Part shown: positions 4,293 to 54,982 of the stretch, one piece after another
Numbering within the stretch: position 1 is the stretch's first letter
How the letters are laid out: every line of letters starts with the position of its first letter
Assembly: GCA_033763575.1 (NCBI GenBank)
Contig: JANRKF010000010.1
Coordinates: 13,376 to 77,375 of the forward strand
Length of the DNA: 64,000 nucleotides
DNA from: Alphaproteobacteria bacterium
GTDB taxonomy: Bacteria; Pseudomonadota; Alphaproteobacteria; Rickettsiales; SXRF01
Direction: 5' to 3'
Notes under the pieces: model-generated
The model's input: only the letters and a program-made list of their open reading frames with translations
Database searches by the model: none
What the model was told of the DNA's origin: nothing
Made by a program: the position numbers and the translations under genes

Positions 4293-4310
4293 GTGAATAT
4301 TTGATGACAG
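4293..4310 (-). promoter_or_regulatory. Pho-box-like 11-bp direct repeat
   Basis: Minus strand CTGTCAT-caaa-TATTCAC, 17 nt above TATGGT. Confidence 0.45.
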
Positions 4311-4392
4311 TCGGATGAAGAGCGCCAGAATCACTCGATATATATATTATTTATCAATATATTATGCCCCCCATCCTATAACTTGTGTACCC

Positions 4393-4407
4393 ATAATATT
4401 TTCTTAA
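4393..4407 (+). promoter_or_regulatory. CtrA-like box upstream of the pilin gene
   Basis: ATAA-tattttc-TTAA, 11 nt above -10-like TAGACT. Confidence 0.5.
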
Positions 4408-4455
4408 GGTTGATGCTGTAGACTTAGTGGGCAGAGTGTTAAACAGGGACTGAAT

Positions 4456-5274
4456 ATGCGGCGACAGGGGTTTACACTGATAGAACTAAGCATCGTCCTC
4501 GTAATTATAGGATTGCTGGTGGGTGGTGTGATGGTCGGTCAAAGCCTGATACGCGCCTCGGAAATGCGTTCCGTTATTACCGAAATCAACCAGTATAAAT
4601 CTGTGTTTTACGCCTTCAGGGATAAATTCAACGCACTGCCGGGCGACATGAGAAACGCAGAGAATTTTTGGGGCGAAATCGACCCCGACCCTGAAACATG
4701 CCGCACAACACTCGGCACCGGAACCCAAACCTGCAACGGGGATGGCAACGGCAAAATCACCGGCTACCCCGGCGGCGGCACCGAGGTATTCCGGGTGTGG
4801 CAACACATATCCAATGCGCAGCTCCTGCCTGTCATTTACACTGGCGTCACCGGCCCTGATAGTGCCCATTATGACGGCGAGCTTGGTAAGAATATTCCTG
4901 CATCACGCATTAGCGGCACCGGTTACAGCATCTATTATTGGGGCATTCAGGGCGTAGATTTCCCGAACGGACAAAGCTGGGCAGTGGTCTATCCCGGAGT
5001 GCAAGTTATTTTTCCTGGGATTGATTACGGCAACGCCATCATTTTTGGCCAATACGTTAATAATAGCTTTACCACAGGTGCCACGCTGACCCCGAATGAA
5101 GCGCATAGTATCGATATCAAATTTGATGACGGCTTTGCAGGCAAAGGGAAAGTGACTCCGTTCACTAATGATTTTCGCGATACGAACTGCACAACCACTT
5201 CCGACAATTCCGCAGAATATGATGGAAGTTATGACGCGATAGGATGTTCATTGCTGTTCATCACCGGGTTCTAG
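4456..5274 (+). CDS. type IV prepilin-like protein (N-terminal cleavage/methylation motif)
   Basis: RRQG/FTLIELSIVLVIIGLLVGG class III signal; ALPGDM; C-terminal Cys pair. Confidence 0.88.
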   Translation: MRRQGFTLIELSIVLVIIGLLVGGVMVGQSLIRASEMRSVITEINQYKSVFYAFRDKFNALPGDMRNAENFWGEIDPDPETCRTTLGTGTQTCNGDGNGKITGYPGGGTEVFRVWQHISNAQLLPVIYTGVTGPDSAHYDGELGKNIPASRISGTGYSIYYWGIQGVDFPNGQSWAVVYPGVQVIFPGIDYGNAIIFGQYVNNSFTTGATLTPNEAHSIDIKFDDGFAGKGKVTPFTNDFRDTNCTTTSDNSAEYDGSYDAIGCSLLFITGF

Positions 5275-5597
5275 CCAGTAATTTTTGTAAAGAAGCAGGT
5301 CTTTTCGCCGGTATGGCAGGCCGGGCCTTGCTGTTTGACCGCAAGCAGGAGCGTATCGGCGTCGCAATCCACATAAAATTCCACCAGTTCCTGGGTGTGG
5401 CCGCTGATCTCGCCCTTGCGCCACAAGGCCTTGCGGGAACGCGACCAATAGGTGACCTGCCGGGTTGCAAGCGTCTTTTCCACGGCCTCGCGGTTCATCC
5501 ATGCGAGCATCAGCACGGCGCCGCTGCTGCTATCCACCGCAATGGCCGGAATCAGGCCATCCTGGTTAAACGTGAGGGTAGACGGGTCAAATTTCAT
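5271..5597 (-). CDS. hisI: phosphoribosyl-AMP cyclohydrolase
   Basis: YWSRSR..LWRKGEISG, DCDADTLL, ACHTG..TCF. Confidence 0.95.
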   Translation of the reverse strand: MKFDPSTLTFNQDGLIPAIAVDSSSGAVLMLAWMNREAVEKTLATRQVTYWSRSRKALWRKGEISGHTQELVEFYVDCDADTLLLAVKQQGPACHTGEKTCFFTKITG

Positions 5598-5617
5598 AGG
5601 CTACATCTTTCGTTCGC

Positions 5618-6340
5618 ATGAAAGACAGTCTAATCAAAGCCACCTCGCTTAGCAAATCATTCCACGGCCAACGGGTGGTGGAGAGCGTGAGCCTGTCGCT
5701 TAAGCCCGGCGAGATTATGACGATCATCGGCCCGAACGGCAGCGGCAAAACGACACTCATCAAATTACTGCTGGGATTGGAAACACCGGATACCGGCAGC
5801 GTGACCCGCAAGGAAAAATTGCGCGTTGGCTATGTGCCGCAGAAACTACAGCTCTCGCGTGTGCTGCCGGTCACTGCGGAGTGGTTTTTGCGACTTAGTT
5901 GTCATCCCGGCGAAGGCCGGGATGACACGTTAAAAGAAATCACCTCCGAACTCGGCATCGATAACTGCCTGCATAAATCCGTGCATACGCTCTCCGGCGG
6001 TGAGATGCAGCGGTTGTTGCTGGCACGCGCACTGCTTGCACAGCCGGAACTGCTGGTGCTGGATGAACCGGCGCAGGGGGTAGACGTCACCGGGCAGGCC
6101 GAGCTGTATGCGCTCATCGCCCGCGTCAGCCGCCAGCGCGGTTCCGCCGTGCTGATGGTGTCGCATGATCTGCACCTGGTCATGTCCGCCACCGATCATG
6201 TCATCTGCCTGAACCACCATATCTGCTGCGAAGGGCACCCGCATTCGGTGCAGGACGACCCGGCATTCACTGAGCTTTTCGGCAAGCGCGTCGCCAATGA
6301 ACTGGCCGTCTACACCCACCACCACGATCACAACCATTAG
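5618..6340 (+). CDS. znuC: zinc ABC transporter ATP-binding protein
   Basis: GPNGSGKT, LSGGE, LDEP, SHDL..V, CLNHHICCEG, His-rich tail. Confidence 0.92.
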   Translation: MKDSLIKATSLSKSFHGQRVVESVSLSLKPGEIMTIIGPNGSGKTTLIKLLLGLETPDTGSVTRKEKLRVGYVPQKLQLSRVLPVTAEWFLRLSCHPGEGRDDTLKEITSELGIDNCLHKSVHTLSGGEMQRLLLARALLAQPELLVLDEPAQGVDVTGQAELYALIARVSRQRGSAVLMVSHDLHLVMSATDHVICLNHHICCEGHPHSVQDDPAFTELFGKRVANELAVYTHHHDHNH

Positions 6341-6437
6341 TGGTTTCTAGGTTGCTTAGTTGCTAGGTTGCTTGGTAAGAAAGACGAGTAACTCCAAAGC
6401 TGACCTAGAAACCTAGAAACCCAGAAACTCAGAGACC
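6341..6437. repeat. octamer-arm palindromic element (TAGGTTKC)n...(ACCTAGAA)n
   Basis: tggtttct aggttgct tagttgct aggttgct ... acctagaa acctagaa acccagaa actcagag fills the znuC-znuB spacer. Confidence 0.78.
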
Positions 6438-53218: not shown

Positions 53219-53243
53219 GAAATAAAGACCCGGCCTAGCGAGT

Positions 53244-53870
53244 TTAAAAGCTGTATTTAAGCTTCATGACGATATCCTGAAGCTCGTTCACCTGGCCACG
53301 GCTGGGATCGACGACATCGCCGCATTTGATCGCCACATGGCCCCGCAACCACCTCCTTGGAAAAAACCTCCGCCACGATCCGCGATATTGGCGGGAGAAC
53401 ACGCTCCCCCACAATCCCGACAGCACGATCGGGATAATGGGCACCGGGTCGCGCTTGATGATCCATTCGATGCCCGGCCGGAAACGGCCAAGGCCGCCGG
53501 TGAAGGTCAGGAAGCCTTCGGGGAAGATGCACACCACCTCGCCGCGCCGGAGTGCCTCGGAGATCAGGTTGAAGGCGTGTTCGACGCTTTTGCGGTTCGG
53601 GGCGATGGGAATGGCCTGGGCGCGTTTCATGATGAAGTTCACGCCCGGGACGTTATAGATGTCCTCGTCGATGACATAATGCACGACGCGGCGGCAACCG
53701 GCGTTGATGAGCGGGCCGTCCATATACGACACATGGTTGCTGATGAGGATGGCGGGGCCGCTTTCCGGGATTTTGTCGAAATCGATATAGCGCGGGCGGT
53801 AAACAAACGTGACCAGCCCATGGATGAGTGTTCGCAAAACCCGGTCGATCAGTGGTTCGGCCTGAGACAT
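53244..53870 (-). CDS. PlsC-like acyltransferase
   Basis: SNHVSYMD, IFPEG, PIIP motifs. Confidence 0.9.
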   Translation of the reverse strand: MSQAEPLIDRVLRTLIHGLVTFVYRPRYIDFDKIPESGPAILISNHVSYMDGPLINAGCRRVVHYVIDEDIYNVPGVNFIMKRAQAIPIAPNRKSVEHAFNLISEALRRGEVVCIFPEGFLTFTGGLGRFRPGIEWIIKRDPVPIIPIVLSGLWGSVFSRQYRGSWRRFFPRRWLRGHVAIKCGDVVDPSRGQVNELQDIVMKLKYSF

Positions 53871-53992
53871 GGGGCTATTATAGGCTGGGTTTGGTTAAGG
53901 AGTTGTTATGCCGGGGCAAAATTTCTGCTTTACCTAGGGGTTTGAAGCTGCTATAAGCCGCGTCCCAAAACGTTTTATTGATTGAGAGAACC

Positions 53993-54328
53993 ATGTCGAC
54001 AAAAATTCGCCTATCCCGCGGTGGCACCAAGAAACGCCCCTATTACAGCATCGTTGTGACCGCTTCGCGCAATCCGCGTGATTGCAAGCACTTGGAAAAA
54101 ATCGGCACCTACAACCCGCTGCTGGCGGATAGCGCGGAAAAACGCGTGAGCATCAACGAAGAACGCGCCAAATACTGGCTCTCCGTGGGCGCGCAAATGT
54201 CGGATCGCGTGCATTTGTTCTTCAACAAAGCTGGTATCGTTGCCACCAAGCCGCTCCAGCGCCCTGCCCGCAAAGCCAAAAAAGACAAAGGCGGCGACGC
54301 AGCCCCGGCTGAAGCCGCTGCGGCCTAA
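53993..54328 (+). CDS. rpsP: 30S ribosomal protein S16
   Basis: KIRLSRGG.KKRPYY, EKIGTYNP, WLSVGAQMSDRV. Confidence 0.97.
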   Translation: MSTKIRLSRGGTKKRPYYSIVVTASRNPRDCKHLEKIGTYNPLLADSAEKRVSINEERAKYWLSVGAQMSDRVHLFFNKAGIVATKPLQRPARKAKKDKGGDAAPAEAAAA

Positions 54329-54331
54329 TTA

Positions 54332-54439
54332 TTCTCCCTCCCCAGTAGGGGGAGGGTCGGGGTGGGGGCATCCATGCGCAAACGTTCAAAAACTGAGCAA
54401 GAATGCCCCCCTCCTAACCTCCCCCCTATGGGGGGAGAA
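54332..54439. repeat. 108-bp GC-rich REP-like element overlapping the rimM start
   Basis: Termini ttctccc/gggagaa; inner ctccccagtagggggag and ctcccccctatggggggag hairpins. Confidence 0.82.
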
Positions 54440-54949
54440 AAAAACTCCTTCAAAATAGCCCGGATCGCCGCAGCCCATGGTATTCGCGGCGAGGTGAAGC
54501 TCTCCTGTTTTCTTGAAAATCCCGACGACATCGCCCGCTACAACCCGCTTTTCACAAAGCAGGGTAAGCCTTGCAGCCTGCGCGTCACCGGCCACGCCAA
54601 AGATCACCTGATCGTTGCGATCGACGGCATCAGCGACCGCAACGCGGCGGAAATACTGCGTGGAACCGAACTGTATGCCGATGCCGCCAAGCTCCCGGCC
54701 CCCGCCGAAAATGAATATTATGTGGAGGATCTAATCGGGCTTACCGCCGTGCTCGAAGATGGCAAAGAAGTGGGGAAAGTGACGGCCATACACAATTTTG
54801 GCGCGGGCGACATTCTGGAAATCGCCACCCTTTCCGGCGAGGAACTGCTGCTGCCGTTTCAGGCGCCGTTTGTCGGGGAAATCCAGAATGGCCGCATCAC
54901 CGTGCAATGGCCGGAATATATCGGCAACCAAGCTATTGAAAAACAATAA
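54374..54949 (+). CDS. rimM: ribosome maturation factor RimM (start 54374 or 54428)
   Basis: HGIRGEVK, EYYVEDLIGL, NFGAGDILEI, LLPF. Confidence 0.93.
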   Translation: MRKRSKTEQECPPPNLPPMGGEKNSFKIARIAAAHGIRGEVKLSCFLENPDDIARYNPLFTKQGKPCSLRVTGHAKDHLIVAIDGISDRNAAEILRGTELYADAAKLPAPAENEYYVEDLIGLTAVLEDGKEVGKVTAIHNFGAGDILEIATLSGEELLLPFQAPFVGEIQNGRITVQWPEYIGNQAIEKQ

Positions 54950-54964
54950 TTCGCATTTTTTCAA

Positions 54965-54982
54965 TTGTCATAAAATCTTTAC
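54965..54982 (+). promoter_or_regulatory. Pho-box-like 11-bp direct repeat
   Basis: TTGTCAT-aaaa-TCTTTAC, 22 nt above TATAGT. Confidence 0.5.

Follow-up and report, generated by a model that had tools for sequence, protein, structure and literature searches.

Promoters of the phosphate regulon of Escherichia coli, such as those of pstS, phoA and ugpB, carry the Pho box and have no -35 element. In the Pho box, units of 11 bp, each with a TGTCA core and an A/T spacer of 4 bp, are repeated head-to-tail in tandem. In the textbook geometry known from the work of Makino and Wanner, the box reportedly replaces the -35 element and ends approximately 10 bp upstream of the -10 hexamer. The box reads CTGTCAT-A(A/T)A(T/A)-CTGT(C/A)A(C/T) and approximately nine transcription units of the regulon are known in 4.6 Mb (PMC3465305), the direct repeats being bound head-to-tail by the response regulator PhoB (PMC4415409). 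Here, we describe repeats of this kind in a 64-kb window, i.e. the whole stretch of DNA analysed, corresponding to positions 13376-77375 of contig C10 in the assembly of an uncultured alphaproteobacterium of the order Rickettsiales (1.94 Mb, 55% G+C, 35 contigs, 92% complete; C-numbers denote contigs of this genome). We show that the repeats mark one real, conserved promoter class common to scattered genes. It comprises approximately 55 promoters in 1.94 Mb, a far denser set than that of E. coli, with which it shares the tandem units, the core, the spacer and the lack of a -35 element.

The virG promoter of Agrobacterium carries a pho box. For Edwardsiella tarda, PhoB was reported to act on the type III and type VI secretion systems via EsrC (Chakraborty et al. 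2011, reviewed in PMC4415409). In these cases, as would hold for the system described here, PhoR-PhoB phosphate sensing feeds a machine for host-interaction secretion. PhoB there retains control of the pst/pho genes and touches one or few regulatory genes, whereas here the boxes stand directly on a secretion operon and on approximately 45 putative cargo genes, and on none of the phosphate genes.

A second relative is PmrA of Legionella pneumophila and Coxiella burnetii, a winged helix-turn-helix (wHTH) regulator activating approximately 40 Icm/Dot effector genes (PMC6989116, citing Zusman et al. 2007), whose motif was used to predict effectors. Both regulons have one type of OmpR-family site with tandem repeats at a fixed distance to the -10 hexamer, and both unite dozens of unrelated, fast-evolving genes with secretion genes. 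They differ in the motif (TTAAT-type there, TGTCA-type here), in the regulator being PmrA, in the secretion system (type IVB Dot/Icm there, VirB/D4 type IVA here) and in the host lineage, the PmrA regulon belonging to gammaproteobacteria. By analogy, the regulon described here would be a functional counterpart of the Legionella PmrA effector regulon, its orphan genes being putative effectors. Full-text literature searches returned no account of genes for type IV secretion or orphan repertoires being preceded by Pho boxes; while the Pho box itself is already known, the retargeting of Pho-box/PhoB-type promoters to secretion-linked orphans may be new.

A promoter class built on tandem 11-bp repeats

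The original prediction, made from the letters of the window, had named five repeat positions ahead of unrelated genes, and all five were confirmed. The sites, referred to as A to E, follow the consensus yTGTCAyAAAA-nyTTCAyA and lie at 4292-4310(-), 10714-10732(-), 21962-21980(+), 50639-50682(+) and 54965-54983(+), the two sites first listed at 4293 and 10715 being on the minus strand and serving the genes at 3800-4258 and 9486-10667. All sites consist of paired 11-bp units (four units in site D), and in each unit an A-rich spacer comes after a (C/T)TGTCA(C/T)-like core. Sites were scored with a fixed 19-column position weight matrix, and 20 column-permuted matrices of equal composition served as controls; this procedure replaced an unconstrained weight-matrix iteration, which was dropped because it drifted to A/T-rich sequence. 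The matrix gives the five window sites 21-27 bits, and no other intergenic position within the 64-kb window reaches 13 bits.

Genome-wide, 58 intergenic and 12 coding sites score at least 14 bits, compared to a mean of 3.65 and a maximum of 7 intergenic matches for the permuted matrices. Thirty of the 58 intergenic sites are training sites, leaving 28 new sites to be set against the 3.65 expected. The motif is thus in clear excess over chance in intergenic DNA. The label intergenic is approximate as our home-made gene caller overlooks atypical genes, among them genes A and D2 of the window, and some sites labelled as coding are real promoters, e.g. the one at C22:12683. The spacing of the units is equally distinct: pairs of a T.TCAY core and a subsequent ..TCAY core have 39 intergenic matches at a start-to-start distance of 11 bp, whereas in a scan of distances from 6 to 27 bp most others gave 8-17 matches, the next highest counts being 26 (15 bp) and 23 (19 bp). 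The TCA cores are nearly invariant across sites. Aligning the flanks on the box revealed no information except in the -10 region and no -35 element; with nothing conserved beyond the box and the -10 hexamer, the box is not part of a repeat element.

The position of the -10 hexamer is similarly constrained. Among the 53 intergenic sites of at least 16 bits, TAnnnT starts at +39 to +41, counted from the start of the pair, in 30, with 2.3 expected (0.75 per offset), and at +28 in nine, including that of virB2; minor peaks are found at +46 and +51. A distance of approximately one helical turn separates the two main peaks, as expected of an activator that must face the polymerase, and a G two bases ahead of the hexamer is common. 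All five window promoters belong to the +39 to +41 class, a -10-like hexamer beginning 39-40 nt past the start of the pair in each case (for site D, of the proximal pair), so that the gap of 21-22 nt to a good -10 hexamer, originally claimed for four of the five, holds for all. In eight of 40 promoters an ATG stands exactly 12 nt past the start of the hexamer (p = 2e-7). As this places the ATG at the expected transcription start, a quarter of the mRNAs are predicted to be leaderless, including that of gene A and those beginning with the mini open reading frames (mini-ORFs) ahead of genes D1 and E.

The promoter class is conserved among the relatives, of which the nearest public ones are metagenome-assembled genomes labelled 'uncultured Rickettsiales bacterium'. 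The exact pattern TGTCAYNAAANNNTCAY occurs 19 times in this genome. The 24 other genomes of the family contain 6-35 copies each, and in 16 further families of the order the count is 0-20, with a backward-read control giving 0-1. Some relatives use the variant TGTAAY instead of TGTCAY, which does not discriminate between regulators. At orthologous loci it is the box that persists. Gene B has homologues in 15 of 16 family genomes searched (its own genome counted) and in none of nine genomes of other families, with identities of 45-56% within the genus and 23-37% beyond. Of 13 orthologues, 12 are preceded by a site scoring 14.7-26.2 bits and by a hexamer at approximately +40, the exception being a truncated locus; ten of these sites are 33-82 nt and two approximately 260-290 nt ahead of the estimated start, and everything between box and hexamer has changed. 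Upstream of the DUF1465 gene (gene C), two relatives with 77-79% protein identity (L022 and L023) have kept ACGTCATAAAA-nCTTAATA, followed by a hexamer precisely at +40; the remaining spacer and the flanking DNA have diverged. With the box kept while the target proteins diverge or vanish, an old promoter type is maintained by selection, whereas its targets turn over quickly.

Target genes and the type IV secretion operon

For the analysis of the targets, the first ORF downstream of 56 distinct promoters of at least 15 bits was searched against Pfam. Six of these 56 ORFs are probably spurious and were left out of the composition statistics together with one further ORF of less than 90 aa. No Pfam family was found for 45 of the 56 first genes, compared to 7 of 40 window genes without the motif (Fisher p = 7e-10), 33 of this background set having a family; the proposed enrichment of orphans over other genes is therefore strong, and the motif is absent from all of the approximately 40 housekeeping genes of the window. 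The 11 first genes with a Pfam match encode TrbC/VirB2 pilins, DUF1465, DUF2610, DUF1150, ClpS, DUF192, ferritin, amine oxidase and BTLCP peptidase proteins and one further protein with a weak EF-hand match. The regulon proteins are almost all mutually unrelated, with only two weak pairs among them. Their N-termini are acidic on average (-0.98 versus +0.83 in other genes), signal peptides are present in 8% and an internal hydrophobic segment in approximately 37%, and their C-terminal charge does not differ from that of the controls.

The annotated targets connect the promoter class to type IV secretion. Two TrbC/VirB2 pilin genes are among them. One is preceded by the second-best site of the genome (C11:11923, 29.8 bits), the other by a site of 22.6 bits (C22:12683) and stands at the head of a complete VirB/D4 type IV secretion operon encoding VirB4-VirB6-VirB8-VirB9-VirB10-VirB11-VirD4; a partial second cluster on C33 with VirB3, VirB4 and VirB6 has a weak site of 11.4 bits. 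The pilin promoters consist of CTGTCAAAAAACTGTCACA followed by 8-9 nt ending in TG and then TAnnnT, placing the hexamer at +28, i.e. in the classical geometry of the E. coli Pho box. All 12 related genomes examined for this, including five that belong to different families of the order, have a correctly oriented site of at least 13 bits upstream of one or more of their VirB2 genes, that of genome G031 reaching only 13.3 bits.

The original prediction had described the targets as effector-like. This idea gains weight from the same promoter type heading the VirB2/VirB-D4 operon here and in 12 relatives, while export of the proteins is a matter of interpretation. The co-regulation with the VirB/D4 operon, the lack of export signals, the lack of paralogy and the very fast turnover together suggest that the orphans may be co-expressed secretion substrates or proteins for interaction with a host or prey, which is the most economical reading of the data. 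The PmrA-regulated effector sets of Legionella (approximately 40 genes; PMC6989116) have these four features as well.

The five window promoters and their genes

Site A (4289..4310, minus strand; 25.4 bits) is composed of the units CTGTCATCAAA and TATTCACACAA. Its -10 hexamer TAGGAT (4270-4265) lies 40 nt from the start of unit 1, and the ATG of gene A (3800-4258, minus strand), an orphan of 152 aa without Pfam family, follows at 4258, 12 nt past the start of the hexamer, resulting in the prediction of a leaderless mRNA. Divergent from orphan A is a gene for a protein with a prepilin-type N-terminal methylation motif (4456-5274), which has no Pho box of its own.

Site B (10711..10732, minus strand; 21.2 bits) has the units ATTTCACAAAT and CTGTCACATTT and the -10 hexamer TATGAT (10693-10688), and precedes gene B (9486-10667, minus strand), encoding 393 aa without Pfam family. 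An AlphaFold model of the gene-B family based on 12 sequences has a mean pLDDT (predicted local distance difference test) score of 68 with a core above 85 and a predicted all-alpha fold. Between promoter B and rpsA, at 10751-10836, tandem short repeats are found, with TAAGCTGAAA occurring approximately four times and AACCAGCAGG approximately twice, in addition to an 11-nt unit.

Site C (21962..21983, plus strand; 21.6 bits), with the units TCGTCACAAAA and CCTTAACATTT and the -10 hexamer TATAAT (22002-22007), precedes gene C (22035-22457, plus strand), encoding a DUF1465 (RcdA-like) protein of 140 aa. In the DUF1465 leader of the relative L023 a different repeat, taaggctataacaag, is present.

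Site D (50639..50682, plus strand) contains the four 11-bp units CTGTCACAAAA, TTGTCATAAAA, CCTTAGGCAAA and TATTCATATTT. The distal pair reaches 27.3 bits; the proximal pair, formed by CCTTAGGCAAA and TATTCATATTT, is at the standard place, the -10 hexamer TATAAT (50701-50706) following 40 nt after unit 3. A mini-ORF of nine codons (50712-50741) begins 11 nt after the start of the hexamer and ends 3 nt before the ATG of D1. Genes D1 (417 aa) and D2 (52008-53015, 335 aa), spanning 50745..53015 on the plus strand, have no Pfam family and probably form a single operon.

Site E (54965..54986, plus strand; 26.3 bits) combines the units TTGTCATAAAA and TCTTTACAAAA with the -10 hexamer TATAGT (55005-55010). 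A predicted leaderless mini-ORF of 12 codons (55017-55055, plus strand) overlaps the start of gene E (55048-56535, plus strand), an orphan of 495 aa without Pfam family. The mini-ORFs of D and E ending 3 nt ahead of the main ATG or overlapping it suggests translational coupling. Gene E is located between rimM and trmD (54362-57420), within the normally contiguous rpsP-rimM-trmD-rplS cluster, and no homologue was found in 40 related genomes searched, the same genus included, which gives it the appearance of a recently inserted or de novo gene.

The motif does not mark every orphan. Five further ORFs of the window lack a Pho-box promoter (28109-29200, 30248-32824 on the minus strand, 40109-40846, 45167-45796 and 45850-46392), the first four being without Pfam family and the last lying outside the Pfam scan, which shows that a second, differently regulated set of genes of this kind exists. 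Phosphate-selective porins are classical members of Pho regulons elsewhere. The porin O/P gene of the window (40870-42216) has no Pho box; it adjoins a gene read by eye as sulfate-binding-protein-like, the two spanning 40870-43317, which has none either. The window furthermore contains two PemK/MazF-like toxin genes (16234-16617 and 37616-37975), the second one standing beside a small ORF without Pfam family (37989-38231).

PhoB as the candidate regulator

The genome encodes seven full-length OmpR-family regulators, i.e. PhoB, CtrA (412 bits), a CopR-like, a QseB/PmrA-like and an OmpR-like protein, a confirmed KdpE-like protein and a seventh one on C18 judged KdpE-like by eye only. The original prediction held that the motif matches the PhoB box and that an OmpR-family regulator, possibly PhoB, coordinates the genes. 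The match stands, the unit consensus being the E. coli half-site CTGTCAT plus an A/T spacer (PMC3465305). A single PhoB equivalog is encoded at C26:128497-129225 (TIGR02154, 334.6 bits at a cut-off of 296.2), whose DNA-binding domain has its best PDB matches in E. coli PhoB (3T72, 1QQI, 1GXP) and whose recognition helix, RTVDVHVRRLRK, differs from that of E. coli, RTVDVHIRRLRK (1GXP, 3T72), in one Ile-to-Val change. To this similarity with the E. coli system come the spacing of +28 in virB2 and approximately nine of the 53 promoters and the occurrence of some four-unit promoters, like pstS. Control by PhoB is favoured by the shared motif and by the single PhoB with an E. coli-type helix; the phosphate genes without a box speak against it, as detailed below.

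The distribution across genomes points in the same direction. Among 41 genomes, PhoB scores above cut-off in 30 of the 31 with at least four matches to the pattern, the exception being a genome that is 71% complete, and 0-2 matches occur in the four complete or near-complete genomes that lack PhoB (Fisher p = 3e-4, uncorrected for phylogeny). This phyletic pattern fits PhoB being necessary but not sufficient for the motif. CtrA was ruled out as the binder of the TGTCA sites since it has a separate set of boxes: canonical TTAA-N7-TTAAC sites occur 16 times genome-wide, 14 of them intergenic and distinct from the TGTCA sites, and one of them, TTAAGAGATAGTTAAC at C6:83880, lies approximately 60 nt upstream of ctrA itself.

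The phosphate genes are distributed over five contigs, with pstS on C13, pstCAB on C33, phoU on C4, phoB on C26 and a phoR-like gene on C10. The signalling genes are thus outside the usual phoR-pstSCAB-phoU-phoB cluster, phoU adjoining an AcrB pump gene. The stand-alone phoR of the original prediction is found as a PhoR-like histidine kinase gene at 23809-25275 on the minus strand of the window (PAS, HisKA and HATPase domains), with no pst gene nearby; it scores below the PhoR cut-off (TIGR02966, 300.2 bits at a cut-off of 334.2), and from its sequence the kinase is a candidate sensor partner of PhoB.

The third-best box of the genome (C33:90937-90955, minus strand; 28.7 bits) lies just past the stop codon of lysA, facing its 3' end, and has no -10 hexamer at +28 or +40. 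It was rejected as a promoter of pstCAB, since 2.5 kb and the genes argH and lysA, on the opposite strand, separate the two and a -10 hexamer is missing; it could be an antisense promoter or act in reverse on a 122-aa ORF at 91040.

Helix identity, motif identity and phyletic pattern favour PhoB, and we consider it probable that PhoB has lost its classical targets lineage-wide and reads these boxes, the Pst/PhoU/PhoR sensor being constitutively expressed. According to this model, a response regulator of the winged-helix OmpR family, most probably the single PhoB orthologue, would bind each site as a dimer and site D as a tetramer, arranged head-to-tail on the two 11-bp units with their TGTCA-type core and A-rich spacer. 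The dimer, centred approximately 41 bp upstream of the transcription start, would stand in for the -35 element, which is lacking, and bring RNA polymerase to a good -10 hexamer, in many cases with a G at -14. It would do so in two helically phased geometries, either with the -10 hexamer 28 nt from unit 1, i.e. the E. coli type used by the virB2 operon, or at 39-41 nt, one turn farther upstream, as for most orphan genes. Besides the VirB/D4 operon and an extra VirB2 pilin gene, the regulon would comprise approximately 45 fast-evolving proteins, most of them unrelated to one another. With PhoB as the regulator, the PhoR/PhoB/PstSCAB/PhoU sensor would be retained as the signal input, with low phosphate as the presumed signal, and rewired to a secretion programme.

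Several observations weigh against this model. No box is found within 400 nt upstream of pstS, pstCAB, phoU and phoB, the best score being 3.2 bits or less, and pstS in 29 other genomes of the order has no strong box within 600 nt, with scores mostly below 5 bits and the highest, 13.5 bits, occurring in a genome without PhoB. The suggested comparison with the pstS promoter thus turned out negative, leaving the link to phosphate starvation a presumed one. No phosphate-related gene is among the annotated targets, and a regulon lacking every classical Pho gene is unusual for PhoB and unlike that of E. coli, the targets here being a type IV secretion system and orphans. Most promoters have the box approximately 12 bp, i.e. 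one helical turn, farther from the -10 hexamer than in the textbook E. coli arrangement, placing the hexamer at +40. Four PhoB-bearing genomes also have only 0-2 matches to the pattern, and six OmpR-family regulators are encoded besides PhoB. On the side of the targets, secretion of the orphans is something we infer, and the predicted structure of the gene-B family has no match in the PDB (best E = 1.7) and provides no functional clue. A run search for the organism, whose known occurrence is limited to DNA from biofilm and drinking-water metagenomes, returned DNA runs from these sources and no RNA runs. Overall, the promoters are of the Pho-box type in sequence and logic, even though the pst/pho genes have no box and the E. 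coli geometry is confined to a minority.

Among the alternatives, a classical phosphate-starvation regulon with unannotated members, i.e. the cell's own envelope or membrane-remodelling, stress or phosphate-scavenging proteins, survives best and appears to us somewhat unlikely. It would agree with PhoB as the candidate regulator, with the internal hydrophobic segments in approximately 37% of the proteins and with PHO regulons elsewhere holding many membrane and stress genes (PMC4415409). However, neither a phosphate transporter nor a phosphatase nor the phosphate-selective porin of the window has a box, the promoters of the type IV pilin and operon are members conserved across the order, and the very fast turnover of members, gene E missing even in the genus, together with almost no paralogy is typical of effector repertoires.

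Less probable still, and unlikely in our view, is the same regulon being read by another OmpR-family regulator of the CopR-, QseB/PmrA-, OmpR- or KdpE-like type, PhoB controlling something else or nothing detectable. The six further full-length regulators provide candidates, the classical Pho genes lack a box here and in the relatives, and PmrA of Legionella, driving approximately 40 effector genes, is a precedent for a wHTH regulator in such a role (PMC6989116). Against this, the E. coli PhoB helix is found only in the PhoB orthologue and the box is the same as the half-site of E. coli PhoB, genomes of the order without PhoB show no expansion of the motif either, PmrA and CtrA have known motifs of a different kind, and nothing links the QseB/PmrA-like protein to the motif.

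A generic housekeeping element of the lineage, resembling an UP or -35 element, or a by-product of A/T-rich composition was tested and rejected as highly improbable: the motif is A/T-rich, weak matches arise in A/T-rich intergenic DNA and the unconstrained iteration drifted that way, but the permuted matrices fall far short of the observed count, the housekeeping genes of the window have no site, the TCA is near-invariant and the 11-bp peak is sharp. Rejected too, as highly improbable, is the end of a mobile element or a duplicated promoter cassette spread with the orphans, which in part resemble insertions, such as gene E, as conservation stops at the borders of the 22-bp box and the -10 hexamer, the proteins encoded downstream show no relationship and orthologous promoters keep the box but not the sequence between box and hexamer.

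Returning to PhoB as the reader of the boxes, the wider proposal is that PhoR-PhoB has been cut from phosphate uptake and has become the master switch of type IV secretion and of approximately 50 secreted proteins with fast turnover, family-wide and in parts of the order, which we put forward as a tentative possibility. If true, this would be a clear case of regulon rewiring in which a near-universal nutrient regulator keeps its DNA specificity and loses all classical targets, and to join the repertoire a gene would need only to gain a Pho box at a distance of one or two helical turns ahead of its -10 hexamer. Type IV substrates are very difficult to identify in Rickettsiales-like bacteria, having no shared sequence signal and coming from uncultured or intractable organisms. 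A promoter tag on the secretion operon and approximately 45 further, fast-evolving genes provides a testable candidate list for each genome, as the PmrA motif did, and the Pho box would, if the proposal is correct, be a sequence tag listing type IV secretion cargo directly from metagenome assemblies of unculturable organisms.

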